NCBI GenBank assembly: GCA_002428045.1
Contig: DIZZ01000281.1
Span: 1,634 to 65,633, forward strand
Direction: 5' to 3'
Length of the DNA stretch: 64,000 bases
From: Verrucomicrobia bacterium UBA6015
GTDB lineage: Bacteria; Verrucomicrobiota; Kiritimatiellia; UBA8416
Below are positions 10,299 to 60,290 of this stretch, one piece after another. The notes under the pieces are model-generated. The model saw only the letters and a program-made list of their open reading frames with translations, had not been told where the DNA came from and did not search any database. The number at the start of each line of letters is the position of its first letter. Position 1 is the first letter of the stretch. Position numbers and translations under genes: made by a program.

Positions 10299-11342
10299 CT
10301 ATGGTGGTGCCGATGGCGAAAGATTTGACTTCCCCCCTGTTGAAAGCAATCCACAGGCGGCGAGGATATCCTCCCCGCGTGATGCGCGCACCGTGGTTCG
10401 GATGCCTTTGCCGACCAGGGCCTCGCGGAATTCCTGGATGGTACCTTCCGGTGAACTTTCCAGCGGGGTGTCCGGGATGGGATGGAATCGGATCAGGTTC
10501 ATGCGGCAGCTCAGGCCGCCCAGCAGTCGCACGATTTCGCGAACATGCCGGGGGCTGTCGTTGATGCCCTTGAACATGATGTACTCAAAGGAAATCCGCC
10601 GCTGCGGGTCGGTGTTGCCGGCCTTCAGCAGGTCGACGACATCGGCGATGGGATAGACCTTCTCGACCGGCATGAACTGCTGGCGCTCGTCATGGAACGG
10701 GTTGTGCATACTGACGGCCAGATGGCAGGCGGAATGCGCAAGGAAATGCCGGATGCCCGGGATCAGGCCGATGGTCGACACGGTGATGCGGCGCGGACTC
10801 AAGGCGAGCCCCCAGTCGGCCGTCAGGATCTCGAGACTGCGCATCACGTTGTCCAGATTATCAAAGGGTTCGCCCATGCCCATATACACGATGTTGGTCA
10901 GGCGCTCCCGTTCCGGCAGGCTCAGGATCTGGTTCAGGATCTCGCCCGCCGACAATTGGGCCTGGAAGCCCTGCCTGCCGGTCATGCAGAACAGGCAGCC
11001 CATCTTGCAGCCCACCTGCGAGGAGACACACAGCGTGGCGCGGTCCCCGTCCGGAATATAGGCCGCTTCGACAAACCGGTTCTGCCGGGTCGGGTAAAGG
11101 TATTTCCGGGTGCCATCGGCCGACGTCTGGACCTTCGTGGCCTCGTTCAGGCCAAGGGTGAACCCGTCGCTGAGCCGTTGGCGGGCTTGTCGCGAGAGAT
11201 TGGTCATCGCATCAAACGAACGCGCAGGCTTCTTGTAGAGCCATTCACAGAGCTGCCGTCCCGAAAAGGAGGGAAGTCCCAGACGGGTGACGATCGCCTC
11301 CAGTTCCTCCGGTGTTTTGCCGATCAGGGGTTCTTCACTCAT
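10299..11342 (-). CDS. rlmN: 23S rRNA/tRNA m2A methyltransferase RlmN (radical SAM)
   Basis: CKMGCLFCMTG (Cx3Cx2C) and an RlmN-like N-terminus (SFSGRQLCEWLYKK). Length 347 aa. Confidence 0.85.
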   Translation of the reverse strand: MSEEPLIGKTPEELEAIVTRLGLPSFSGRQLCEWLYKKPARSFDAMTNLSRQARQRLSDGFTLGLNEATKVQTSADGTRKYLYPTRQNRFVEAAYIPDGDRATLCVSSQVGCKMGCLFCMTGRQGFQAQLSAGEILNQILSLPERERLTNIVYMGMGEPFDNLDNVMRSLEILTADWGLALSPRRITVSTIGLIPGIRHFLAHSACHLAVSMHNPFHDERQQFMPVEKVYPIADVVDLLKAGNTDPQRRISFEYIMFKGINDSPRHVREIVRLLGGLSCRMNLIRFHPIPDTPLESSPEGTIQEFREALVGKGIRTTVRASRGEDILAACGLLSTGGKSNLSPSAPP

Positions 11343-11485
11343 GACCAGAACGTATATCTCCGCCAGCAGATTATCAATCTATATGTTTGCAAATCGAACG
11401 TTTTTGGCGTATACGGTGTCGGCATAGAGTTTAGAAGTCTGTAGAGATATTACCAGTCTTCTGTAATAGAACCAAAGGAGTCACG

Positions 11486-27371: not shown

Positions 27372-27396
27372 CCGGTGTTTGGAATCGTGATCCGTA

Positions 27397-27432
27397 ATCG
27401 TCAACCGGAACCTATGCCTGTCGGTTGACGAT
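27397..27432 (+). terminator. Perfect 11-bp inverted repeat hairpin (ATCGTCAACCG...CGGTTGACGAT) just after the giant gene stop
   Basis: Seen directly. There is no U-tract, so this is a possible Rho-dependent or stabilising 3' hairpin rather than a classical terminator. A second hairpin GGCCGGG-ttccac-CCCGGCC lies ~30 nt downstream. Confidence 0.3.
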
Positions 27433-27514
27433 AACTGTGGACGATTAAATCTTGAGGGCCGGGTTCCACCCCGGCCGCGGCGTTGTCAATCTTGATGTCA
27501 ATCTTTTAAATAGA

Positions 27515-27565
27515 CCTTTATAGGAATATTATGTACTATAAATACGTTAATCAGATCTATAAAGG
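27515..27565 (+). promoter_or_regulatory. Palindromic operator candidate (CCTTTATAG-N33-CTATAAAGG) upstream of hipB
   Basis: Perfect 9-bp inverted repeat in an AT-rich intergenic region. The right arm lies 7 nt before the hipB ATG. Direct repeat TGTCAATCT x2 at 27484-27504. Confidence 0.45.
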
Positions 27566-27571
27566 ATTGTT

Positions 27572-27880
27572 ATGAGTGCCAACATTGAGGATCTTATGGC
27601 CTTGTTGGGCGAGCGGATACGCGAGTTGAGGCTGCGAGAAAATATTGCCCAGACTGTGCTGGCGATGCGGAGTGGTGTTTCACTGAAGGCCGTGAAGAAT
27701 CTGGAAAATGGCACCGGAGCGACCGTTTCTTCATTGCTGCGGGTGTTGCGTACCTTGGGTCGGAACGAGTGGATTGAGACGCTTGGTCCCAAGGTCGGCA
27801 TCAGTCCTATGCAGATGGTGAACCGCAGAAAAACGCGCCTGCGGGCGACACGAAAAAAGACCGGGGTGGCTGATGTATAA
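27572..27880 (+). CDS. hipB: HipB-like XRE-family HTH antitoxin
   Basis: Helix-turn-helix region (IAQTVLAMRSGVSLKAVKNLENG). It overlaps the downstream HipA-like gene by 8 nt. Confidence 0.7.
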   Translation: MSANIEDLMALLGERIRELRLRENIAQTVLAMRSGVSLKAVKNLENGTGATVSSLLRVLRTLGRNEWIETLGPKVGISPMQMVNRRKTRLRATRKKTGVADV

Positions 27881-29144
27881 GCCGGTCAATCTCGTTGAAG
27901 TCTGGATCTGGGGAGCGCGTGTCGGGGCTGTCGCCAAGGATCCGCGAACTGGATTCTATGCGTTTGAATATGATCCCCGATTTGTTCGCACAGGCATTGA
28001 ATTGGCGCCGCTTTTCATGCCGATCCGGAGGGCAAATCAACCGTTTGTTTTTCCGGACTTGCCCGAAGAAAGCTATCATCGCCTCCCGGCGCTCCTTGCC
28101 GATGCGCTGCCGGATTCCTTCGGTAATATCCTGATTGATGCATGGATGGCAGAGCAGGGCATCGAACGGAGTCGGATCAGCGTTCTGGATCGCCTGGCGT
28201 ACATGGGAAAGCGAAGCATGGGCGCACTGGAATTCAAGCCCGTGATCGGACCGAAGGAGAAGACCCCCACCGCGATTGAGCTCTCCTCGCTTGTGGAAAG
28301 CGCACGGAGGGCTGTTTATGGCGACTTAGGAATAGATGCTCGCACGGATGCGGCGTTGCACCAGTTGATGCAGGTGGGCACGTCCGCTGGCGGAGCACGG
28401 GCCAAGGCTGTGATCGGATGGGATCGCAAGAATCGAAAACTCTGCTCCGGGCAGTTCGATGTTCCTGATGGCTTTGAGCACTGGATCATCAAATTCGACG
28501 GTGTCGGGGATACGCCCAATGCGACGCAGGATTCAGGACGGGTGGAACTGGCTTATCACAACATGGCTCGGGCAGCAGGCATTACAATGATGGAGTGCGA
28601 TCTGTTTTGCCATGATGGACGCGCACACTTCATGACCCGGCGGTTCGACCGTGACGGCAACACCAGGCATCATCTGCAGACCCTCTGCGCGATGGCACAT
28701 CTATCTTTTCATCAGCGGGCTGCCTATAGCTATCACCAGCTCTTCGAGACCGTCAATGAGCTCGGGATGGACTACGCCACCCGCGAAGAGGTTTTCCGTC
28801 GCATGGCCTTCAACGTCTTGGCTAGAAATACCGATGACCACAGTAAAAATGTCTCGTTTCTCTTGAAACAGGGTGGGGGGTGGGAGCTTGCGCCCGCATA
28901 TGATCTCACCTACTCCTATACGCAGGTTGGCGAATGGAATGAGTGGGCGAACCCCCGGGTGATGGCAGTCAGCGGGAAATTCTCGAACATCACCGCCAAG
29001 GATCTGCTGGAGGTGGCTGAGCAATTCGGCATCGGAACCGCACGGCGGGAACTGGATCGTGTCATGGATGCTGTCCGTCGCTGGCCGACATTTGCCGACG
29101 CTGCCAGCGTGACAGACGAGAACGTGATACAAGCCCTAATCTAA
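27873..29144 (+). CDS. hipA: HipA-family Ser/Thr kinase toxin
   Basis: HipA N-terminal (VWIWGARVG) and C-terminal kinase regions (HWIIKF...ARNTDDHSKNVSF...YDLTYSY). Confidence 0.8.
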   Translation: MYKPVNLVEVWIWGARVGAVAKDPRTGFYAFEYDPRFVRTGIELAPLFMPIRRANQPFVFPDLPEESYHRLPALLADALPDSFGNILIDAWMAEQGIERSRISVLDRLAYMGKRSMGALEFKPVIGPKEKTPTAIELSSLVESARRAVYGDLGIDARTDAALHQLMQVGTSAGGARAKAVIGWDRKNRKLCSGQFDVPDGFEHWIIKFDGVGDTPNATQDSGRVELAYHNMARAAGITMMECDLFCHDGRAHFMTRRFDRDGNTRHHLQTLCAMAHLSFHQRAAYSYHQLFETVNELGMDYATREEVFRRMAFNVLARNTDDHSKNVSFLLKQGGGWELAPAYDLTYSYTQVGEWNEWANPRVMAVSGKFSNITAKDLLEVAEQFGIGTARRELDRVMDAVRRWPTFADAASVTDENVIQALI

Positions 29145-29361
29145 GTTCACATGCTGTCAAGAGTGTTAAATTAGTATCGATACACCGAGCATTTGTCCGG
29201 TGGAGGCGATGCTTTGCCTGCAACAGATCACAGGCCTCCGAGCTAATATCCCGCGCATCGTGGTTGGCGGCGGCATTGTACGGCCTTAGGAAACAAGGGC
29301 GGGGAGGATATGCCAGACGTCCCGTTGGTTCGTAACTGAAGCATTATATCGGAACTTCAGC

Positions 29362-30603
29362 CTAGATGGCATTCCAGGGGATGGCGGCGGCGTGCGGAGA
29401 GATGGACCAGGCCTCATGTCCGGCGAAAAGGATAACGCCGGGTTGTGCCTGCGGATACGTGGTGCGAAAGGCCTGGATGCCGCGTGTGTCGTGACCGCTG
29501 ACCTGCGTCGATGCCTTAAATTCAATCGGGTACAGTTTGCCGTCCTGCTCCAGCACGGCATCGACCTCCGCCCCGTTCTCCGTGCGCCAGTGCCATAACC
29601 CCGGTGATATCGGAAGACGTGCCAGTTGGCTGCGCAGCCAGCCCACACACCAGGATTCGTAGATTTGTCCGAGCAGGGGACTTGCCAGCAGGCTCTCCGG
29701 CGACGACAGCGTCTGAAGATAGCAGGCGAGTCCCGAGTCCTGGATGTGCCCCTTAGGTTTCATGCTCAGGCGTTTGATGGTATTCCCGCTGTACGCGGGT
29801 AACTCCGTCCACTGGTACGAATGCACCAATAGATCCAGCCAATGGCGTGCCGTTTTGGGGCTGACTCCAATATCCCTGCCGAATTGCGATTGATTAATCT
29901 CGCGTGCCGTCATGGCACCGCATAGGCGGAGGAACCGACCGAACAGTGCCAGATCCGACACATTCCCCATAACGCGCACATCCCGTTCGATATAGGTCTG
30001 GACATACGAGCTGAAGTAGGCGGGAACATCGGCATTATTCTCGAACTCCAGAAGTCCCGGAAGTTGCCCGCGCCAGAGCATTGTGGTGAGCGGAACGGAA
30101 GACGATATCAAGGACCGGTCCTGGCGGGGTTGATTGACGAATTGCGCAGGGTCATGCAAATATTGTCCTAGCCAGCTTTTGACTTGGGCCTGCCCGTGTT
30201 GCTCGGCTAGCGTCATGCCGTCCAGACGCAAAATGCCGACCCGCCCGGCAAGGCTTTCCGATACCGTTCGCAGCACGGCCAGATTTTGCGAACCGCAAAG
30301 ATAATACTGCCCTTTGCGGTCGCTGCCATCGACGCGACGCTTGATCGCCGGCAGCAATTCCGGCGCATATTGGACTTCATCCAGTAGGAGCGGACTGCCA
30401 AATGTATCGAGAAAACGATCGGGATCAGTCCGGGCACCGTAGGGATCCTGTATCGGATCAAAGGTAACACATGTCACCCCTGGCAGAAAATGCTGTAGCA
30501 GCGTGCTTTTGCCAACTTGTCGCGCACCGGCAATCATAATGACTTTAAACAATCGTGCATAACGCGTTAGCAAGACCTCGACATGCCGTTCTAGATATTT
30601 CAT
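29362..30603 (-). CDS. AAA+ ATPase (AAA_14 + DUF4143-type)
   Basis: Walker A IAGARQVGKSTLL and Walker B LLLDEVQ. ~410 aa, typical of DUF4143 ATP-binding proteins. Confidence 0.75.
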   Translation of the reverse strand: MKYLERHVEVLLTRYARLFKVIMIAGARQVGKSTLLQHFLPGVTCVTFDPIQDPYGARTDPDRFLDTFGSPLLLDEVQYAPELLPAIKRRVDGSDRKGQYYLCGSQNLAVLRTVSESLAGRVGILRLDGMTLAEQHGQAQVKSWLGQYLHDPAQFVNQPRQDRSLISSSVPLTTMLWRGQLPGLLEFENNADVPAYFSSYVQTYIERDVRVMGNVSDLALFGRFLRLCGAMTAREINQSQFGRDIGVSPKTARHWLDLLVHSYQWTELPAYSGNTIKRLSMKPKGHIQDSGLACYLQTLSSPESLLASPLLGQIYESWCVGWLRSQLARLPISPGLWHWRTENGAEVDAVLEQDGKLYPIEFKASTQVSGHDTRGIQAFRTTYPQAQPGVILFAGHEAWSISPHAAAIPWNAI

Positions 30604-30666
30604 GTCGACAAATTACCACGATAATTGGGATTATCAAGAATAATATACGTTATTATGCTCAAACAC

Positions 30667-30699
30667 CACTTGCACGCCGACTGACACCTGTGGCAAGGT
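30667..30699 (+). promoter_or_regulatory. Conserved 33-nt element, copy A (CACTTGCACGCCGACTGACACCTGTGGCAAGGT)
   Basis: ~31/35 identical to copy B at 35523..35555. Contains the inverted repeat CTTGC-N19-GCAAG. It lies at the 5' edge of a GC-rich orphan block. Confidence 0.4.
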
Positions 30700-30944
30700 G
30701 AGCGTCAGGATAGGTACGGGGATTATCCAAGTGGGTCGGTGACGGATCCGACGGGGCCACCGAATGGCTCGGGCCGTGTGCTTCGCGGCGGTGGTTGGGG
30801 CGGCGTCGCCGCGAGCTGCCGTGCGGCCTATCGCCTACAACTGCGGCCCGTCGCTCGGGAACTGCGGCCTGGGGTTTCGCGTGGTTCTCGCGGCCCCGGT
30901 TCCATGAGTGTCCATTGAGCTACAGCGCACCGGCGGGCTCGGGG

Positions 30945-30978
30945 TGGGCCAGGCGGTGCAGTAGCCCCATGTTTTTTT
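30945..30978 (+). terminator. Intrinsic-terminator-like hairpin + T7 tract ending the GC-rich orphan block
   Basis: GGGCT...AGCCCC followed by ATGTTTTTTTG. The stem is short and imperfect. Confidence 0.35.
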
Positions 30979-31276
30979 GCGATAATCAGCCGGATCGTAG
31001 AAGTTACCAAGCTGCGCAGCTCATAACACGATCAGGAATCGTGATTCTGCGATGATGACGTTTCGGAGGACGAAAAGGCTTCCACAGCATACAGGGGAAG
31101 CGACAGCAGTTCAAAGGTCACATCGGCGACATCCTGCCCCACCCGTGCGCGGTAAGTCGTCGTCACTTTCGAGGCAGGATTGAGATCGAAACGCACGGCC
31201 TGCAACACTTTCTTTTCCATCCGGTCCGCGCAATAGCCGGTGCATGAGTAGAACTCTATTCACCCTGGTTTTATGG

Positions 31277-34200
31277 CTACCGATTGAGGGCTGCCATTAG
31301 TTCGTGGACTTTCATCGGCTTGCTCAGATACCCGTCCATGCCCGCCGCCAGGAACCGCTCCCGGTCTCCGCGCAAGGCAAACGCTGTCAACGCAATCACC
31401 TGGGTGTGCCGACCGCTCTGTCTTTCCATCGTTCGAATGGCCTGCGTTGCCTCCAACCCATCCATAATGGGCATCTGCACATCCATCAATACAACGTCAA
31501 ACGCTTCCGCTACCATGAGCGCCAGGGCTTGCTGGCCGTTTCCTGCCGTCAGCGTTTTATGTCCTGCCATATTCAAGAGCGTTTCCGCGAACAGCACGCT
31601 GGTCGGGTCGTCGTCCACAATCAGTATTGTCAAGGGTTTGAGCTGACCCACAATCACGCTTTCATCTAGGGTTATCAATCCCGGGGTAGCCTCCCTGACG
31701 CCGACAATGACCGTGAAGAAGAAGGTGCTGCCTTTGCCGGGCTGGCTCTCCAACCACATCGTGCCCCCCATCAACCCCACCAGACGGCTCGCAATGGGTA
31801 ATCCCAGCCCAGCCCCTCCGCCATGATTGACGGAATTGGGCGTATCAACCTGCCCAAACGCCTCGAAAACATCCGCCTGCCGGTCTAAGGGAATGCCGAT
31901 CCCGGTGTCCTGAATGCTGAATAACAGTGCCGCTTCGTCCGTTTCCGGGGAACGACCCAATCGCGAAGCTCGTCCGTCCTGCACGGTCATCGTGATGCTG
32001 CCAGCAGGAGTGAACTTAATCGCATTATTCAGGAGATTCAAGATGATCTGCCGGAGCCTGAGGCCGTCCGCCAGACACTCTTCCGGCAGCTCCGGCGCGA
32101 TATCCTGCTCCACTCGTAATCCCTTCTTGGCTGCCAATGGGATCACCGACGCAATCAGATCCCGGATCGTTGAGCGCAGGGCAAGAGGCCGCCGTTCGAT
32201 GACCACCTTCTCTGCCTCAATCCTGGATAGGTCCAATATGGCGTCAATGAGTTGCAGGAGGTCAGATCCTCGCTGGTTGACCAGTTTCAGCCACGTCCGC
32301 TGCTCGGCTGTCAGATTGTGCGCCAAGACCATCAACTCAGTGAACCCCAGAATTGGATTCAACGGCGTGCGCAGTTCATGGCTCATGTTGGCGAGGAACT
32401 CGCTCTTGGCCCGGTTCGCCTTCACGGCGGCTTCCTTTGCCAGAATCAACTCCTGCTCCGCACGAAGACGCTCGATTTCTCCCGCCGTCCGTACGGCAAC
32501 CAACTGCAATATTTCTTCGACCTGCGAACGATTCGTCAGTGGTCTGCGGCTGATCAGCGCAATCAGTCCGATCGGTTTGCCGGTATGCCCCCAGAGGGTC
32601 ACGCCAACATAACTCTCAGCCCTCAGATCCTGAAGCACTTGATCCCTGGGGAAGAACTGGCAGACACTGGCAGGAAAGCAACAGACCGTCTTGCCCACCA
32701 CATCGCCACACGGGGTGTCTTTCAGTGCATACGTCACATTATCTTCAAATTTGCCGTCGCACCATACCGCGACAGTCCTGGCGGTCAGGCCATCCCCTTC
32801 GAGACGATCAATACAAACGAAATCCATGCCAAGGCTTTCAGCCAGGTATTGCGCCAGCATATTGAAGAATAACTGACCCTCTGCCATGCGACTGCTGGTT
32901 TGCGCAAGAAAGGCCTGAACATTCTGCGCCAGCTTGCGCTCGGTGATGTCCTGGAAAGACCCTGAAACGCTGACCGTCCTTCCCTGCTCTTGATGCGGTT
33001 GCCCCACCGCCCGGACCCGGCGTTTGTTCCCTTTGAAAGTCGTTATTTCCCACTCCTGATCGTATGGCTCGCCGTTTTCGATGGCTCTCCGTATGGCTTC
33101 CAAAGCCATGGGTCGGAATTCTGGACGGATGAACTCCACGCCCACAGGAACTTCTGGAGCGCCATGGGTCAGGTCAATTTCGAGGATGCGGAAGGTCTCG
33201 TCCGTCCAGGTCTGGGTCATGGTATTGACGTCGAATTCCCAGCCGCCGATTTTGCCCGCTCTTTCGGCTTTGTCCAGCAACGTCTGGTATTTTAATAAAC
33301 GCTCCTCCGCCTGCTTGCGCAACAAAGCCTCGCCAATATACTCCCCGACGATCTCCATCTGTTCCACCATTTCAAGTGTCAAGCGCCCCGGTCGGCGGTC
33401 ATTGATCTGGATCAGTCCGATATTTTCCCCTTTGCCCCGAATGGGAATCAGGGCAATCGACGCGTAACCTTGATGGGTACACGTATTGCGCGGATGTATC
33501 CTGGGATCCTGATCTGCCGGAAGGTCGAGTAACGGTAACGAATTATTTGTCCAGATGCTGCCGCCTGGCGTGAAGAGGGGATTGGATGGGTCGGTTTTGC
33601 CTGCGATGATCAGTCCGCAGGTGCAGGTTAGGAGAACCTTACCGTTGACGTCCCTGCATAAGCCTCCATCCATGCTCCGGTGTACCAGCGAATTCTCTTT
33701 CTCTATAAACGCGCAAGAAAAACCATCCTGGACGTAATAGGGGTAGTCATCTCCTTTTTGTAGGCGAATTCCGGCAGCATCAAACCCGAGGGAAACTTTT
33801 ATGGTGGTGAGAATCTCATGGATCGAGGCTTGAATGCCTGCCGACCGGCTGAGAATATCCAGGATTCTCCTGCTCATCTCTTGGAAAAGCTCCGCACGCT
33901 TGCGCTCGGTGATGTCGGTCATCACCATGTAGCAGGTTGGCGCGCCATCTTCCGCCTGGGTGGCGCGTCCTGTCAGATGCGCCCAAAAGAACGCCCCGCC
34001 CGGCTTGGTCAGCCGTAGTTCGCATACCTGCGGTTCGCCCGCCTGAAAGAGCTTTTGGAGCTGCCGGTCGTAGAGATCCTGATCATCTTTCAGGATGAGG
34101 TAGGCGAGCGGCTGGTTGACCAGTGCGCTGCGGGTTGTGCCAAACAGAGTGGCAGTCGTAAGGTTGGCCTCCAGTATCAGCCCCTCTTTGGACAGTGTGA

Positions 34201-34312
34201 AATAGCCCACGGGAGCCTGGTCATAGAGGTCGATATAGCGTGTGCGCAGTGCTTCGATCTCTGTAGGCTGTGAGATTGTCCGTTTGCTCAGGTCATTCTT
34301 TTTGTTTGTCAC
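31277..34312 (-). CDS. Hybrid sensor histidine kinase/response regulator with PAS and GAF domains
   Basis: Multiple PAS/GAF segments, the HisKA H-box ANMSHELRTPLNPILGF, HATPase N/G boxes, and a C-terminal receiver (ILIVDDDP...VLMDVQMPIMDG...K). Confidence 0.85.
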   Translation of the reverse strand: MTNKKNDLSKRTISQPTEIEALRTRYIDLYDQAPVGYFTLSKEGLILEANLTTATLFGTTRSALVNQPLAYLILKDDQDLYDRQLQKLFQAGEPQVCELRLTKPGGAFFWAHLTGRATQAEDGAPTCYMVMTDITERKRAELFQEMSRRILDILSRSAGIQASIHEILTTIKVSLGFDAAGIRLQKGDDYPYYVQDGFSCAFIEKENSLVHRSMDGGLCRDVNGKVLLTCTCGLIIAGKTDPSNPLFTPGGSIWTNNSLPLLDLPADQDPRIHPRNTCTHQGYASIALIPIRGKGENIGLIQINDRRPGRLTLEMVEQMEIVGEYIGEALLRKQAEERLLKYQTLLDKAERAGKIGGWEFDVNTMTQTWTDETFRILEIDLTHGAPEVPVGVEFIRPEFRPMALEAIRRAIENGEPYDQEWEITTFKGNKRRVRAVGQPHQEQGRTVSVSGSFQDITERKLAQNVQAFLAQTSSRMAEGQLFFNMLAQYLAESLGMDFVCIDRLEGDGLTARTVAVWCDGKFEDNVTYALKDTPCGDVVGKTVCCFPASVCQFFPRDQVLQDLRAESYVGVTLWGHTGKPIGLIALISRRPLTNRSQVEEILQLVAVRTAGEIERLRAEQELILAKEAAVKANRAKSEFLANMSHELRTPLNPILGFTELMVLAHNLTAEQRTWLKLVNQRGSDLLQLIDAILDLSRIEAEKVVIERRPLALRSTIRDLIASVIPLAAKKGLRVEQDIAPELPEECLADGLRLRQIILNLLNNAIKFTPAGSITMTVQDGRASRLGRSPETDEAALLFSIQDTGIGIPLDRQADVFEAFGQVDTPNSVNHGGGAGLGLPIASRLVGLMGGTMWLESQPGKGSTFFFTVIVGVREATPGLITLDESVIVGQLKPLTILIVDDDPTSVLFAETLLNMAGHKTLTAGNGQQALALMVAEAFDVVLMDVQMPIMDGLEATQAIRTMERQSGRHTQVIALTAFALRGDRERFLAAGMDGYLSKPMKVHELMAALNR

Positions 34313-34621
34313 GCCAATCTTCCTGTCTGAACTTGGTTATCCAGTATTCCCGAACCGATGGCTCACGAAAGGTACAACGCCATGCGTCAGATTGTAAAGT
34401 GAATTCCGATGCCCTTTGACTGTGTGAGTATTCGTCTCACGGGAGTGGCCCGTTCCACCCGCTCCGCAGAGTAATAGCTCGTACCCAAGCGGAATACCAA
34501 GGCCTACACCATGGTTATATTTCACGCAAAGACGCAAAGACGCGAAGGCGCAAAGCTTGCCACCCGCTGCCCAATATGGCATTGTTTGCGTGCGTCTTTA
34601 ATGATACCGGGAAGGGCGGAT

Positions 34622-35494
34622 ATGAATAATCCTATGTTCAGGCCACCTGCAGAGGCAGACAGCGTGATCCTGCAGATCGACGAAGGCTGTCCGTGGAACC
34701 GTTGTACGTTCTGCGGGATGTACAAGGCCATTCCTTTCATGAAACGGTCTCTCGACCAGATCGTATCCATGATTCGCCAGGAGGCAGCGCTTAACGTGGA
34801 CGCTCGGCGGATCTTCCTGGCGGATGGAGACGTGATGCGACGGCCGTTCGATGAGCTTGCCTGCATCCTGCAGTTGCTGGCCGAATCGTTTCCACGCTTG
34901 GCACGGGTCAGTCTTTATGCCAACGGGTCCTCGATCCTGGCGAAATCCGATGTGCAGCTTGCCATGCTTCGCACGCTCAGGCTTCACACGCTTTACATGG
35001 GGCTGGAAAGCGGAGACGACACCATACTCCAGGGCTGCTGCAAGGGCGAAACGGCATCCGCCATGGTCGAGGCTGGAGGGAAAGCCCAGGCCGCAGGGCT
35101 GCGGATGTCCGTCATGATCCTGCTTGGCCTTGGCGGCAGGGCGCGCAGCCGTCAGCATGTCGCCCATACCGCCGACGCCATCAACCAGATGCAACCCCGC
35201 CTTCTCTCGGTATTGCGCGTCATTCCCGTGCCCGGAACCCGACTCTATACAGACACCGCCAATGGCCATTTCGCCATGCCCACGGAATACGAGACGGTGC
35301 AGGAACTACGGGCGCTGGTCGAACAGCTCCAGGTGCATGGAACCGTCTTCAGGGCGAATCACAGCTCCAACATCATCCCGATCGAGGCGCGTTTGCCGCA
35401 AGACAAGCAGACGCTGCTCGCCTCGTTGGACTCCCTCATTGCCTCCGGCATCCTCGACCGGAACAGCCCCGGCCACCTTTCCGCATGGCTCTAA
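34622..35494 (+). CDS. Minimal radical-SAM-like protein with atypical Cx4Cx2C cluster motif (290 aa)
   Basis: DEGCPWNRCTFCGMYK, a GLESGDDTIL 'G-ESG' motif, and ILLGLGG. Start set at MNNPMF (GAAGGG upstream); the ORF continues upstream to 34511. Confidence 0.6.
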   Translation: MNNPMFRPPAEADSVILQIDEGCPWNRCTFCGMYKAIPFMKRSLDQIVSMIRQEAALNVDARRIFLADGDVMRRPFDELACILQLLAESFPRLARVSLYANGSSILAKSDVQLAMLRTLRLHTLYMGLESGDDTILQGCCKGETASAMVEAGGKAQAAGLRMSVMILLGLGGRARSRQHVAHTADAINQMQPRLLSVLRVIPVPGTRLYTDTANGHFAMPTEYETVQELRALVEQLQVHGTVFRANHSSNIIPIEARLPQDKQTLLASLDSLIASGILDRNSPGHLSAWL

Positions 35495-35522
35495 CCCCAT
35501 ATCCGTTATCCGATGCATAAAC

Positions 35523-35555
35523 CGCTTGCGCGCCGCCTGCCACCTGTGGCAAGGT
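35523..35555 (+). promoter_or_regulatory. Conserved 33-nt element, copy B (CGCTTGCGCGCCGCCTGCCACCTGTGGCAAGGT)
   Basis: It ends 7 nt before the ATG of the LPP20/DUF4384 gene. Same CTTGC-N19-GCAAG inverted repeat as copy A. Confidence 0.4.
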
Positions 35556-35562
35556 AGCTGGC

Positions 35563-37104
35563 ATGACAACACGCTCTATAAGCCCCTTTGTAGGCACTTG
35601 TGCAATGTGCCTGTCGACCCTGTTTTGTCTGAACCTGGCCGACTCTGCGTCCGCTCAATCCCTTCCGTCTTGGTATATTGCGCCGCCGGAGGATCCCGCC
35701 CTGGTTACCGGTCGCGGCATGGCTGAGCTCGGGCGGGGGGGTGAAGCGGCCGCCCTGGAGCAGGCCAAGCGCGAAGCCATGCGGGATATGGCGCAGTCGC
35801 TTCTGAGCCGGGTCACCTCCGAGATCATCGACCACCAGGAAGAGCAAGACACTGGCGGCGTGGCGAGTCAGTATGCCAGCCGCACGGTTGTGGAATCCGC
35901 CCTGGAGCTTGTGAATGTACGTACGTTGCATGAGGCCGTTACCAAGGATATGGCGTTTGTGGCGGTGGCGGCGGAACGCGACGGCATGGCCCGCGCCTAC
36001 CGTGAGCGCACCACCCGGCAATTCGACACGGCGGCAGCGGCGTTTGTCCGAGCCGGTGCGTTGGAGGCCGAGAAGAACGCCCGTGACGCCCTGTCCGCCT
36101 ATGAATCCTCCCTGGCGGCCTTGCGCGATGCCCATAGCAGTCTGCAGGTCTATCTGGCGCTTAGCCGCTGGGCCGACCAGCCCCCCGTGCCCTCCACGCT
36201 GCCGGATCCTGCCGATATCCACGTGCGCCTGAAACGCCTGTCGGCATCCACTCCGCGCACGCTCCAGGAGGTCGCCGCCGCCTTGACGACTTCATTGACC
36301 GCCTCCCTGCCGCCCGACGCCCGTCCACAGTCCTGGACCGTCCTGCCGATCGAGTTTGAGCATACGGGGTTTGTGTCCGACTTCGGACATCAGCTTGCCA
36401 GTGTGCTTTCCGCAACCCTGACGTCACATCCAGCCATACGCATGACGGATAATCCGGCCAGTGCCGCCGTTATCGTACGCGGGCGGATGCTGCGGGAGGG
36501 AGAGAGCGTGCTCCTGATCCTGAGCGCCGGCAGCCGGACCATCCAGCATTACATTGAGCCCGTCACCTGCGCCGCGATCGGCAAGGCCAGGATCGAGCCG
36601 CCCGATTTGGATCGACTACTGGCGGACAAGCTCGCATTACACAAGGCCATGCAGGCTCCGTCAGGACTCCGGGTTGAGCTGCGTGCCGACCGTGACGAGC
36701 CTGTCACCTATCGTTTCGGCGACAAACCGAAGCTGGCGGTACGGGCGGACCGGGCCTGTTTCATCCGGCTGGTCTACGTTACGGCTGACGGCCAACGGTT
36801 ACTCCTGAAGGATCGTTACGCCATCGGCGAACACCAGGCCAACCAGTGGGTAACGCTGCCGCTGGACATGGAGGTCTGCGAACCGTCCGGTGTTGAGCAG
36901 ATGCTACTACAGGCTGTTACGCAGGAGGACGATGCCCGCCTTCCGCCGCTGAAGGTCAGGAACGAGCAGGTTGGCGACAGCTACGTCATCCCCGTGATTG
37001 AGGAAACGCTCGACGAAGCCATGACACGAACCCGTGGCATGATGATCAAAAAACAGTCCCACTTCGCCGAAATCGCCAGCCAGTGGACCATCTTCGCGAA
37101 ATAG
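35563..37104 (+). CDS. Secreted protein with LPP20-like N-terminal domain and C-terminal DUF4384-like domain
   Basis: Signal-like N-terminus. The Ala-rich LPP20-like region reads GRGMAELGRGGEAAALEQAKREAMRDMAQSLL. The C-terminal segment VTYRFGDKPKLAVRADRACFIRLVYVTADGQRLLL...WVTLPLDMEVCEPSGVEQMLLQAVT is DUF4384-like. Confidence 0.55.
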   Translation: MTTRSISPFVGTCAMCLSTLFCLNLADSASAQSLPSWYIAPPEDPALVTGRGMAELGRGGEAAALEQAKREAMRDMAQSLLSRVTSEIIDHQEEQDTGGVASQYASRTVVESALELVNVRTLHEAVTKDMAFVAVAAERDGMARAYRERTTRQFDTAAAAFVRAGALEAEKNARDALSAYESSLAALRDAHSSLQVYLALSRWADQPPVPSTLPDPADIHVRLKRLSASTPRTLQEVAAALTTSLTASLPPDARPQSWTVLPIEFEHTGFVSDFGHQLASVLSATLTSHPAIRMTDNPASAAVIVRGRMLREGESVLLILSAGSRTIQHYIEPVTCAAIGKARIEPPDLDRLLADKLALHKAMQAPSGLRVELRADRDEPVTYRFGDKPKLAVRADRACFIRLVYVTADGQRLLLKDRYAIGEHQANQWVTLPLDMEVCEPSGVEQMLLQAVTQEDDARLPPLKVRNEQVGDSYVIPVIEETLDEAMTRTRGMMIKKQSHFAEIASQWTIFAK

Positions 37105-37255
37105 TGAGGTGCCCGCCGAGCTCATTTACTGCCACCGGACCGGAATGCTCCGGTTACGTCATCTCGTGTACGAAGCGCCCAGTTTCGATATCGTCTGCAA
37201 GTGCCGTTCAAAACAATTGCAGAACACCGCCGGTCTGTGGCAATATCCACCCACT

Positions 37256-38932
37256 ATGAAAATATTTAAACCAGTTCTGTTTGTCGTGCCTGCCCTCACC
37301 CTGTGGGCAGCCAGTTTATTCGCCCAGGCCAGCGATACGCGAGGCATGAAGGTGCTGTCTGCAGAACAGAGTGGCGTTGTCGGATATGACCCTGCGCGTT
37401 TTCATGCACTGATTATCGGCATCAATAATTACTCTCGGTGGGCCAAGCTCAGGACAGCCGTCAATGACGCCACGTCCGTGGCAGACGCCTTGGTAGACAA
37501 CTATGGATTCCCCGCAGGTCAGGTGCGGCGCTTATTGGATGAGAATGCCACGCGCCGCAATATCCTGCAGGAACTCGATCGGATTTCCGAGCTCGGGCCT
37601 GAGGATAGCGTGCTGATCTACTATGCGGGGCATGGCTGGATGGATGAACATAGGAACGGGTTCTGGATTCCTGTGGATGCCCCCGAGGACGATAAATTCG
37701 CCTATGTATCCAATGCCCAGGTTGTGCAGGAATACTTCAAGAAATACGCGGTAAGGCACCTGTTGGTGGTATCGGACTCCTGTTTCAGTGGCGCATTGCT
37801 GCGCGGCACGGGGGCTAAGCGGGAAGCCGACTGGAAAATACCGGCTGGTTTTAGGAAACCTTCCCGTTGGGTGATTACCAGTGGCGATCTGGCTCCGGTT
37901 CCAGATGATGCAGGCACGGGGCATAGTCCCTTTGCAACGCGCCTGCTGCAATATCTGCGCTATGGTGATGAGCCCGCGTTCGGTATCTATGACCTATTCA
38001 GTTTTGTCAAACACAACCTGGCGAGCGGTGCCATCTGCGAGCCCTTGGATACGCCGTCACACATGCCGGGGGGTGAATTTGTGCTGGCTCGGCTGGATAC
38101 GTCCATTCCCAAGCCACCACCCGACAAGGTCTTGCCGCCTAATATCGTCCTCGAACCAAAGGTATCCCCCTCCCCAAAGGAGAATACGTCTGCTTCCAGC
38201 AATACGCGAACCATCGATCTTGGGGATGGCATTGAGTTGGCGATGGTCCTTGTGAATGCGGGCCGTTTTGAAATGGGTACGGAGAGCGGGGGCTCTGGTA
38301 ATGAACGCCCGGTGCGAACGGTGCATATCACGCGAGATTTCTGGATGGGGAAGACCGAGGTCACGCAGCGGCAGTGGAAACAGCTTATGGGCAAGAATCC
38401 AAGCCATTTCAAGGGGGATGATTTACCGGTGGAAAAGGTGTCTTGGAATGATTCGGTAAAGTTCTGCGAGGCACTCACCAGGCGAGAGCGGGAGGCGAAC
38501 CGATTGCCACAAGGGGCTGTGTACCGCCTCCCGACAGAGGCGGAGTGGGAATACGCGGCGCGTGGTGGAGGCAAGGGAATGAACACGCTGTATGCAGGCA
38601 GCGATAATCTGGACACCGTGGCATGGCATCGCGGAAACAGCGGACGCAAAACACAGAACGTGGGTACAAAAGCGGCCAACGAGCTGGGCCTTCACGATAT
38701 GAGTGGGAATGTTTTGGAGTGGGTTCATGACAAGTATCAGGACAGCTACAAGGGGCTTGAAACGACAGATCCCAGCGGGCTTCAGAAGTCAGGTTTGGAT
38801 CGTGTGGATCGGGGCGGAAGCTGGGATTCATCGGCGTCGTACTGTCGTGTTGCCTATCGCTGTGGCTGGTTCCCTTCCCGCATGGTCAATACCTTGGGAC
38901 TCCGGGTGGTGCTCGCTGCACCCGTTCAATAA
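37256..38932 (+). CDS. Secreted caspase-like (peptidase C14) domain fused to FGE-sulfatase (SUMF1/formylglycine-generating-enzyme-like) domain
   Basis: Signal peptide MKIFKPVLFVVPALTLWAASLFAQA. Caspase His/Cys dyad context: HALIIGINNY...YYAGHGW...LLVVSDSCFSG. C-terminal FGE domain: WMGKTEVTQRQW...YRLPTEAEWEYAARGG...RGGSWDSSASYCRVAYRC...GLRVV. Confidence 0.75.
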   Translation: MKIFKPVLFVVPALTLWAASLFAQASDTRGMKVLSAEQSGVVGYDPARFHALIIGINNYSRWAKLRTAVNDATSVADALVDNYGFPAGQVRRLLDENATRRNILQELDRISELGPEDSVLIYYAGHGWMDEHRNGFWIPVDAPEDDKFAYVSNAQVVQEYFKKYAVRHLLVVSDSCFSGALLRGTGAKREADWKIPAGFRKPSRWVITSGDLAPVPDDAGTGHSPFATRLLQYLRYGDEPAFGIYDLFSFVKHNLASGAICEPLDTPSHMPGGEFVLARLDTSIPKPPPDKVLPPNIVLEPKVSPSPKENTSASSNTRTIDLGDGIELAMVLVNAGRFEMGTESGGSGNERPVRTVHITRDFWMGKTEVTQRQWKQLMGKNPSHFKGDDLPVEKVSWNDSVKFCEALTRREREANRLPQGAVYRLPTEAEWEYAARGGGKGMNTLYAGSDNLDTVAWHRGNSGRKTQNVGTKAANELGLHDMSGNVLEWVHDKYQDSYKGLETTDPSGLQKSGLDRVDRGGSWDSSASYCRVAYRCGWFPSRMVNTLGLRVVLAAPVQ

Positions 38933-59483: not shown

Positions 59484-60290
59484 ATGAAATGGACATTGCC
59501 AATTGCCTCCTATCTCGGATTGCTTGTCACCGCAACCGTTGCCACCGCCCAGGTCGATGACCCACGCGGGGAGACGGCGCGTTCACGATCAATTACTCTC
59601 GGTAATGGCGTCGCCCTGGAGATGGTCTGGATCCCGCCGGGCACCTTCACCATGGGCAGTCCGGAGAGCGAGCAGGGGCGCGATAATGACGAGAAGGAGC
59701 ACCGCGTGACGCTGACCAAAGGCTTCTGGATGGGCAAATTCGAGGTTACACAGGAACAGTGGCAAGCGGTGATGGGTAATAACCCGAGTGAGTTCAAGGG
59801 GGCGAAGCTCCCCGTGGAGCAGGTCTCATGGGACGACTGCCAGTCGTTTCTCCAGAATCTGAACAGGGTGTCGGGCATCGGGCGTCGGGTGTCCTTGGGT
59901 CAGTTCCGGCTACCGACGGAGGCGGAGTGGGAATATGCGTGCCGTGCGGGGAGGACGGTGCCGTATGCAGGTGATCTGGCCGTGATGGGCTGGTATGACA
60001 AGATCAGCGAGAGCAAAACGCATCCGGTGGGTCAGAAGCAGCCGAACGCCTGGGGACTCTACGATATGCACGGGAATGTATGGGAGTGGTGCCAGGACAG
60101 AGGCGGTGATTATCCGGGGTGCGCGGTGACGGATCCCGAGGGGGCACTCTCGGGATCGTTTCGCGTGTTCCGGGGCGGGAGTTGGGACTTCACCGCCGTG
60201 GGCTGCCGATCGGCGAACCGCCTCAGGTATGTGCCGATCTACCGGTACGACGACCTAGGCGTGCGCGTGGTTCTTGCACCGGCTCCATAA
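59484..60290 (+). CDS. Secreted formylglycine-generating-enzyme-family (SUMF1/FGE-sulfatase domain) protein
   Basis: Signal peptide and RBS AAGGAG. WMGKFEVTQEQW...RLPTEAEWEYACRAG...FRGGSWDF...GVRVVLA. Confidence 0.7.
   Translation: MKWTLPIASYLGLLVTATVATAQVDDPRGETARSRSITLGNGVALEMVWIPPGTFTMGSPESEQGRDNDEKEHRVTLTKGFWMGKFEVTQEQWQAVMGNNPSEFKGAKLPVEQVSWDDCQSFLQNLNRVSGIGRRVSLGQFRLPTEAEWEYACRAGRTVPYAGDLAVMGWYDKISESKTHPVGQKQPNAWGLYDMHGNVWEWCQDRGGDYPGCAVTDPEGALSGSFRVFRGGSWDFTAVGCRSANRLRYVPIYRYDDLGVRVVLAPAP

Follow-up and report, generated by a model that had tools for sequence, protein, structure and literature searches.

A promoter-like element before LPP20-like and caspase-FGE genes of an uncultured Verrucomicrobia bacterium, and its probably orphaned copy before a gene remnant

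In a 64,000-nucleotide (nt) stretch of contig DIZZ01000281.1 from Verrucomicrobia bacterium UBA6015 (hereafter the window, meaning this whole stretch) a 33-nt conserved element occurs twice, once before the gene of an LPP20-like secreted protein and once before a GC-rich block, and the question raised by this locus is what function such an element has at two places so different. The original prediction considered it as a shared operator or alternative-sigma promoter joining two loci into one regulon. According to the analysis described here, the element is predicted, with moderate confidence, to be a sigma-70-family promoter with extended −10 region, which serves a small system of LPP20-like and caspase-FGE genes, while the copy in front of the GC-rich block would probably be the orphan of a deleted paralogue. 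The features on which this reading depends are as follows (all on the plus strand).

30643..30699, plus strand: copy A, promoter-like element (TTGCAC 30670-30675, 18-nt spacer, TGTGG 30689-30693, hexamer CAAGGT 30694-30699)
35499..35555, plus strand: copy B, promoter-like element (TTGCGC 35526-35531, 18-nt spacer, TGTGG 35545-35549, hexamer CAAGGT 35550-35555)
37188..37246, plus strand: copy C, diverged (ATATCGT 37188-37194, TTGCAG 37217-37222, 18-nt spacer, TGTGG 37236-37240, hexamer CAATAT 37241-37246)
30706..30907, plus strand: pseudogene remnant, last 66 codons and stop TGA 30905-30907 of an FGE-sulfatase domain
35563..37104, plus strand: LPP20-like secreted protein gene (Pfam LPP20 E = 0.003, DUF4384 E = 0.019, both below threshold)
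37256..38932, plus strand: caspase (Peptidase_C14) + FGE-sulfatase gene (Pfam)

Both 33-nt copies were found where they had been described, A at 30667-30699 (CACTTGCACGCCGACTGACACCTGTGGCAAGGT) and B at 35523-35555 (CGCTTGCGCGCCGCCTGCCACCTGTGGCAAGGT), and both contain the inverted repeat CTTGC-N19-GCAAG together with the proposed core; the distance of 7 nt between the end of copy B and ATG 35563 was also given correctly, and only the identity of the two, claimed to be about 31/35, had to be changed to 29/33. Neither CTTGC-N19-GCAAG nor the exact 15-mer CACCTGTGGCAAGGT occurs anywhere else on either strand of the 64 kb. By chance 0.12 matches are expected from dinucleotide shuffles, and two matches were reached in 0/100 of them. 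The ungapped similarity is longer than was noted, covering 57 nt (30643-30699 vs 35499-35555, 77%) with a sharp right-hand stop at the same base (30699/35555, ...AAGGT), and the copies are direct repeats spaced by exactly 4856 nt. Their differences are distributed unevenly: three fall in the 31-nt core and 10 in the 26-nt upstream part (Fisher p = 0.013), where copy A has the boxes ATAT(A)CGT and AAAC. Every core difference stands at a position which is also variable among orthologues. The arrangement of all copies is not an assembly artefact, because it is identical in independent contigs: sequences of the same population assembled from different samples, 99.5-99.99% identical to the window overall, have base-for-base the same layout, copy A with the remnant in six of them, copies B and C in eight.

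The third copy was registered with a regular expression for the shared architecture. TTGCR-N13-15-CTGTGGCAA has exactly three matches in the window (A, B and C), with 0.00 expected. The core of copy C (37217-37246, plus strand) reads TTGCAG-N12-CTGTGGCAATAT, the site being TTGCAGAACACCGCCGGTCTGTGGCAATAT; it is accompanied by ATATCGT and AAAC boxes at distances similar to those in A and B, and is separated from ATG 37256 by a 9-nt gap (CCACCCACT). Thus all three copies are on the plus strand, and B and C lie just 5' of the gene starts of one system. A position weight matrix (PWM), which was trained on orthologue sites only (L003, L008, L010, L011, L013 and L015, the L numbers denoting fetched loci), ranked A and B first and C fourth in the window, and PWM scans revealed no further site above the shuffle maxima.

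Start codons of both genes probably need correction. The true start of the caspase-FGE gene is probably ATG 37256, and neither GTG 37109, which opens the longest open reading frame (ORF), nor 37145 proposed by gene callers: alignments of orthologues begin only at residue 49 of the long ORF, and translation from ATG 37256 gives a typical signal peptide MKIFKPVLFVVPALTLWAASLFAQA (MKIFKPVLF...). Similarly, the LPP20-like gene probably starts with ATG 35563 (513 amino acids, aa). Orthologue N-termini, having a basic residue within the first five residues, fit this codon better than 35605, the gene callers' choice (499 aa), from which the signal peptide would be devoid of a basic residue.

Relatives of the LPP20-like protein are few (9 proteins, 8 metagenome loci), and positional bias of the element was assessed in the 64-kb window and about 30 fetched loci. 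In the MAFFT alignment the regions that precede the orthologues match A and B in the same blocks. The aligned block was found before the LPP20-like genes of L003/L009 (73% protein identity), L010 (63%), L011, L013-L016 and L008, as well as before the caspase-FGE genes of L011 and L018.

Window, copy B: CTTGCGCGCCGCCTGCCACCTGTGGCAAGGT
L003: CTTGCGTACCG-CTACCGTTTCTGGCAGGGT
L010: GTTGCAAAGCAATCCCGGCTTGTGGCAATCT
L011: TTTGCGCGCTG-GTTGGTATTGTGGCATGGT
L013/L015: TTTGTGCGAAT-GG(C/T)G(G/T)GCTTGTGGTTGAAT
L008: GTTGTAGGGGT-TGCGTGCATGTGATTGAAT
Caspase-FGE genes of L011 and L018, respectively: gattaaccgTTGCAATCCCCCCGCGTTTTATGGCAGTCT and gattaaccgTTGCCATGACCCCGCGTTTTGTGGCAGTCT

The genes located upstream differ among these loci (radical SAM, DUF4349 or a 402-aa protein), and therefore the block travels with the gene behind it. 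In the window and the loci taken together each copy of the strict motif TTGCR-N13-15-CTGTGGCAA is either copy A or a site that precedes, in the same orientation, the start of an LPP20-like or caspase-FGE gene. The diverged form (L008, L013-L016, L018) precedes an LPP20-like or a PIN start, and a looser regular expression additionally matched L008 at 11028-11055.

Several of these loci have peculiarities of their own. In L018 5338-11503 (ENA ERZ2286667 NODE_44) the caspase-FGE gene is located upstream of the LPP20-like gene, and genes for HRDC, a reverse transcriptase (RVT_1) and a PIN-domain protein are inserted between them. L013-L016 have the same promoter as L018, followed by about 100 nt that start with ATG/GTG + AAGCGG/GAGAGG..., and only then, about 100 nt downstream of the promoter, by the LPP20-like start; possibly this stretch is what remains of a PIN gene start like that of L018. 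A separate repeat of about 50 nt with a short palindrome (gttcgtagtYcagccttcaggctg...gagaattgctgg) was observed in L011 (694-743, 2718-2785), L018 (5150-5340) and L016 (717-768, 1901-1951), where it lies upstream of LPP20-like and caspase-FGE promoters alike; it is not present in the window. Between its LPP20-like and caspase-FGE genes L011 has an intergenic region (2470-2790) in which short repeats are arranged in two arrays of opposite direction (CCAAACAC... and GGGTATTT/GGGTCCTT...), which together could form a long hairpin.

The shared architecture consists of TTGC(R)N, a spacer of 17-18 nt ending with TGTGG, and a hexamer whose second base is A and whose sixth is T. The −35-like elements of copies A, B and C (TTGCAC, TTGCGC and TTGCAG) each match TTGACA in 3/6 positions, and their TTG is invariant in the three copies and in the six orthologue sites used for the PWM; L006 has no clear −35-like counterpart. 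The spacer varies in sequence and is 18 nt long in A, B, C, L010 and the caspase sites of L011 and L018, or 17 nt in L003, the LPP20-like site of L011, L013, L015 and L008. Directly 5' of the hexamer TGTGG was found in A, B, C, L010, L011, L013, L015 and the L018 caspase site, TGTGA in L008, and only the TGn part in L003 (TCTGG) and in the caspase site of L011 (TATGG). The hexamers CAAGGT, CAATAT, CAGGGT, CAATCT and CATGGT have A2 and T6. It is well known from promoters of E. coli and B. subtilis that weak −35 and −10 hexamers are classically compensated by an extended −10 (TGn / TRTGn, the "−16 region"), and the element resembles this class in its TTG-type −35, the 17-18 nt spacer, TGTG abutting the −10 hexamer and the preserved A2 and T6. 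From this anatomy, together with its conservation, we infer promoter activity and recognition by a factor of the sigma-70 family. Copy B would then drive the LPP20-like gene and copy C the caspase-FGE gene, and the motif would belong to a small system of secreted LPP20-like protein and orthocaspase-FGE proteins in an uncultured lineage of Verrucomicrobia.

Some observations weigh against this assignment. The −10 hexamers match TATAAT in only 2-3/6 positions and have C in place of the usually invariant T at −12, a consensus sigma-70 scan calls none of A, B and C, and the PWM scores (17.7 for A, 17.3 for B and 15.5 for C, obtained from training sites picked by eye) are within the range of shuffle maxima, 12.9-19.7. 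In addition, G−13, C−12 and A−10 (TGGCA in most sites) as well as the AAAC and ATAT boxes are conserved beyond the needs of a generic promoter, which could point to a dedicated sigma factor or regulator. The element differs from typical extended −10 promoters in the predominant C at −12, in the conserved TGGCA and in the extra AAAC and ATAT boxes, and its host belongs to uncultured Verrucomicrobia, whose own promoter rules are uncharacterised. Nothing requires an alternative sigma factor; given G−13/C−12 and the boxes further upstream, a dedicated factor may nevertheless be involved. Of the original prediction one part stands: the element behaves as a promoter-type cis-regulatory motif tied to a gene system, and it recurs before LPP20-like and caspase-FGE genes with differing neighbours, whereas the alternative sigma is not required. 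The idea of two loci in one regulon is not supported and shrinks to one live gene pair (B and C) plus a relic, copy A preceding a dead 66-codon fragment and no live transcription unit.

The same conserved bases also speak for the most probable competing explanation, namely that the element is the operator of a dedicated transcription factor or an alternative-sigma site (TTGC-N19-GCAA and/or TGGCA, AAAC, ATAT) co-regulating LPP20-like and caspase-FGE genes. This is compatible with a promoter, and we regard it as unlikely. TTGC-N19-GCAA is matched exactly by A, B, C and L010 and with one mismatch by L003, L011 and L018, the bases G−13/C−12, AAAC(C)G and ATATnCGT are those that exceed promoter needs, and the motif is confined to the LPP20-like/caspase-FGE system within the window of about 64 kb and the related loci. 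However, the half-sites of such an operator are only 4-5 bp long, have centres 23 bp apart and coincide with the −35 and −13/−10 positions, so that the palindrome may be a by-product, and in the clade with TTGT...TTGAAT (L008, L013-L016, L018) the palindrome is lost while promoter geometry is kept. Moreover, the neighbourhood of the element contains no regulator or sigma gene: two ORFs of 174 and 125 aa have no Pfam match, and the adjacent hybrid histidine kinase, suggested originally as a possible binder, has no DNA-binding domain according to Pfam and so cannot be the binding protein.

The orphan GC-rich block behind copy A, which had been taken for a plus-strand unit, is not a gene but a frameshifted 3' fragment of an FGE-sulfatase gene. 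Homology to FGE begins at about 30706, 6-9 nt past the end of copy A, and the translation (from 30600-31060) reads QDRYGDYPSGSVTDPTGPPNGSGRVLRGGGWGGVAASCRAAYR / YNCGPSLGNCGLGFRVVLAAPVP*, its frame being shifted by 1 nt near 30835, after ...CRAAYR. A usable start codon is lacking, and copy A contains an in-frame stop. The affiliation follows from a tblastn match to the neighbouring caspase-FGE gene (E = 7e-9), from alignment with positions 207-254 of 255 in Pfam PF03781 (E = 1.7e-4; the score, 21.7 bits, narrowly misses the cut-off of 23.3 bits, as a fragment would be expected to do) and from the retained motifs RGGxW, CRxAYR and LGFRVVLA. Database matches of the 66-aa remnant were short fragments only, at most 62% identical, with PF03781 in 8/9, and gene calls at this position are absent from L002, L017 and L022-L027. 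Of all sequences fetched, the C-terminus of the L018 caspase-FGE protein comes nearest to the remnant (65% over 65 aa), while identity to the two FGE domains which the window still contains is only 49-53%. The window has a third, stand-alone FGE-sulfatase gene (59484-60290, plus strand, 268 aa, 53% identical to the remnant), which is situated near sulfatase and GH2 genes and has TTGACA... and the word TGGCATGAT upstream, the full motif being absent. Directly behind the remnant one more feature was noticed.

30913..30978, plus strand: imperfect long hairpin 30913-30971, then U7 30972-30978

Probably it represents the terminator of the former FGE gene, as predicted from its layout, even though the hairpin (−30.7 kcal/mol, z = −0.53) has no stability above shuffles and the terminator scan left the hairpin and U7 at 30913-30978 unflagged.

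Since the remnant is closest to the L018-type caspase-FGE gene, and this type carries the motif in front of it in both L018 and L011, copy A is probably the orphaned promoter of a deleted caspase-FGE paralogue. The history that we infer would include a second caspase-FGE-type gene behind this promoter and an internal deletion of about 2 kb, which would have removed everything from the start codon to approximately codon 640 of roughly 710 and left the promoter, the last 66 codons and the terminator. An intact core of copy A with a diverged upstream part fits a promoter constrained until recently. Copy A may still fire and would then produce a non-coding transcript of roughly 270 nt heading no gene. 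The locus resembles internal-deletion gene remnants in the intact promoter-like block, the loss of the start and most of the ORF, the frameshifted last 66 codons and the terminator-like hairpin. It deviates from them in a left end situated within about 7 nt of the promoter and in a promoter closer to its neighbour's than the coding divergence predicts.

The latter features tell against the orphan origin. Copies A and B are 88% identical in the core, and the remnant is at most 65% identical (aa) to any extant FGE, so that a simple old paralogous operon is insufficient as explanation; A shares with B even spacer bases that are not conserved in orthologues; and the deletion would have to begin no more than about 7 nt from the promoter end. 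No relative with an intact locus was found in remnant searches, kinase synteny or strain-level contigs: beyond identical copies the next homologue of the hybrid kinase in the synteny search is 46% identical, and the strain-level contigs have the same structure.

For these reasons it was considered that copy A never belonged to a paralogue and is a rearrangement scar without own function, formed, for example, by a tandem duplication of 30700-35555 which joined the end of the LPP20-like promoter to the interior of an FGE gene, most of the first copy being lost later. The exact 4856-nt spacing of the direct repeats, the common stop of similarity at 30699/35555 with FGE homology only 6-9 nt further on, the far closer relation of A to B than of the remnant to any FGE gene and the common spacer bases unconserved in orthologues speak for such an event. 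Nevertheless we find it rather improbable. At least two events are needed, and the 13 differences between the 57-nt copies cluster outside the conserved core, which suggests that copy A was still constrained like a promoter once the two had separated. On the left the similarity ends just where the upstream limit of a promoter is to be expected (about −64), and the remnant is nearest to that caspase-FGE type which carries the motif in relatives. A junction caused by microhomology between the promoter core and the part of FGE genes that encodes NVWEW was considered by hand and judged unconvincing.

A variant which combines both problems assumes that ATATnCGT - ~20 nt - AAAC - 2-5 nt - TTGC - N14 - CTGTGGCAA - N2 - T is the site of a dedicated regulator or unusual sigma factor for the LPP20-like, orthocaspase-FGE and possibly radical-SAM module, and that copy A was retained since it would drive a pseudogene-derived non-coding RNA convergent on the small ORF and kinase operon. 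We think this quite doubtful. In line with the predicted sigma-70-type promoter and its orphaned copy, the element most likely is ordinary regulatory DNA plus a deletion scar, and not a new kind of element.

The position of the promoter-like sites relative to start codons gives one more property of this system. Only 7 nt separate the end of the hexamer from the start codon in copy B (AGCTGGC), in L008 and in the PIN gene of L018, where the start is fixed by the N-terminus MKRLRIYLDTS, and 9 nt in copy C; no Shine-Dalgarno (SD) sequence is present in these intervals. In L015/L016 an ATG, possibly a relic of the L018 PIN start, also lies 7 nt past the hexamer. A spacing of 7-9 nt, seen in five cases, would be expected if the transcription start site coincides with the start codon. 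Transcription would thus begin at the start codon or within about 3 nt of it, producing leaderless or near-leaderless mRNAs. L003, L010 and L011 have 21-39 nt between the block and ATG, with a separate GGAG-type SD in this interval, and in L013-L016 the distance is about 100 nt. AAGGT would therefore be the 3' part of the −10 hexamer and remain outside the transcript; its additional role as the SD of the LPP20-like gene, which had been proposed, is unlikely given the distant block and separate SD of the orthologues and the −10 position of AAGGT in the window. Promoters of leaderless mRNAs in Actinobacteria, Deinococcus and others are similar in that the −10 ends 6-9 nt before the start without room for SD, and here this applies to several genes (B, C, L008, L018 PIN, DUF4143). 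Unlike them, the orthologues of this system alternate between leaderless layouts and those with a leader of 21-39 nt and SD, and leaderless translation in this lineage is a prediction from sequence. Two further sites of the window have a similar geometry: TTGATA-16-TAATTT with TG at 30604-30637 (minus strand), 6 nt before ATG of the DUF4143 ATPase gene, and TTGATA-17-TACGTT at 11343-11380 (minus strand), 6 nt before the start of an rlmN-like gene. Leaderless genes may be common in this organism.

It is very improbable that the element functions as a transcribed 5' leader RNA, in which the CUUGC...GCAAG hairpin masks the AAGG SD of the LPP20-like gene. AAGGT does stand 7 nt before ATG 35563, and a sigma-70-like site TCGACA-18-GATTAT with TG is located just upstream of copy A (30605-30634). 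On the other hand, the end of the radical-SAM gene, which precedes copy B, showed no promoter-like site, copy C is devoid of SD-like bases, and the orthologues in L003, L010 and L011 have a separate SD in the 21-39 nt between block and ATG. Folding z-scores range from −0.8 to +1.2 vs shuffles, the minimum-energy folds of A and B differ, and no Rfam match at E <= 1 was obtained in 29000-37500. Structured RNAs in general (Rfam family, riboswitch or leader) were rejected as well, there being no covariance-model match and no fold beyond shuffles common to the copies.

Two other promoter classes and a dispersed repeat were considered. The words TGGCA and TTGC recall sigma-54 promoters (−24 TGGCAC / −12 TTGC, TGGCAC-N5-TTGC), but here their order is reversed, TTGC preceding TGGCA, no GG-N10-GC register is conserved across copies on either strand (hand reading), and no gene of an enhancer-binding protein is nearby. 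MerR-type promoters, exemplified by PmerT of Tn21 (TTGACT-N19-TAAGGT), have a similar −10 near TAAGGT, a long spacer and dyad symmetry around it; this class was discarded because the spacer of the element is 17-18 nt and not 19-20, its dyad arms are the −35/−10 edges, 23 bp apart, without a central operator, and no MerR-family gene is present among the neighbours. With respect to a dispersed repeat of the kind of repetitive extragenic palindromes or miniature inverted-repeat transposable elements (REP/MITE-like), the window has 3 copies in 64 kb, all on the plus strand, B and C before genes of one system, with the motif kept before orthologues. A scan of the genome contig collection (source genome not included) with CTTGC-N11-CACCTGTGGCAAGGT produced one match, in Ruminococcus, and by our estimate about one is expected by chance.

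The genomic surroundings of the copies include the following features, of which one is a possible fourth, weaker site.

27572-27880, plus strand: HipB-like helix-turn-helix protein gene (Pfam)
27873-29144, plus strand: HipA gene (Pfam)
29362-30603, minus strand: AAA_14/DUF4143 ATPase gene (Pfam)
between the remnant and the hybrid kinase, minus strand: 62-aa ORF
31277-34312, minus strand: hybrid histidine kinase gene (PAS, GAF, HisKA, HATPase and receiver domains, Pfam)
34511-35494, plus strand: radical-SAM protein ORF (Pfam)
34556..34585, plus strand: possible fourth, weaker related site CTTGCCACCCGCTGCCCAATATGGCATTGT, TTGCCA-17-CATTGT with TG
after the caspase-FGE gene: YidD-TPR protein gene (Pfam)

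Through the window the order, with proteins assigned by Pfam, is a 2118-aa protein, HipB-like, HipA, AAA_14/DUF4143, copy A, the remnant, the 62-aa ORF, the kinase, radical-SAM, copy B, LPP20-like, caspase-FGE and the YidD-TPR protein. Copy A is back to back with the putative minus-strand promoter of DUF4143 (TTGATA 30637-30632), and copy B begins 5 nt past the radical-SAM stop codon. The site at 34556-34585 is about 36 nt upstream of the radical-SAM ATG 34622; its PWM score is inside the shuffle range, and it may be a fourth related promoter. The block 27383-30650 with the HipB-like/HipA toxin-antitoxin and DUF4143 ATPase genes has a lower GC content, about 47-60%, than the 2118-aa gene (63%) and the FGE remnant (66%) which flank it, and an inverted repeat with 25-nt arms (27383-27446) marks its left edge; the block may be an inserted island. 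In the strain-level contig L023 (JGI 3300002026 MIS_10000551, 5729-8708) gene calling splits the hybrid kinase into two ORFs (650 + 340 aa), and two blocks of its alignment with the window, which join within the kinase gene (near 31311-31345), have one indel each. This split may reflect decay of the gene in part of the population, or an assembly error.

For the annotation of this genome these results mean that the orphan GC-rich block is a pseudogene remnant, and that the caspase-FGE and LPP20-like genes probably start at 37256 and 35563, respectively. More generally, they provide a concrete promoter model for an uncultured lineage of Verrucomicrobia, where the rules of promoters and the translation of leaderless mRNAs have hardly been studied, and the common cis-element, linking the LPP20-like and orthocaspase-FGE genes, hints at joint working of their products.

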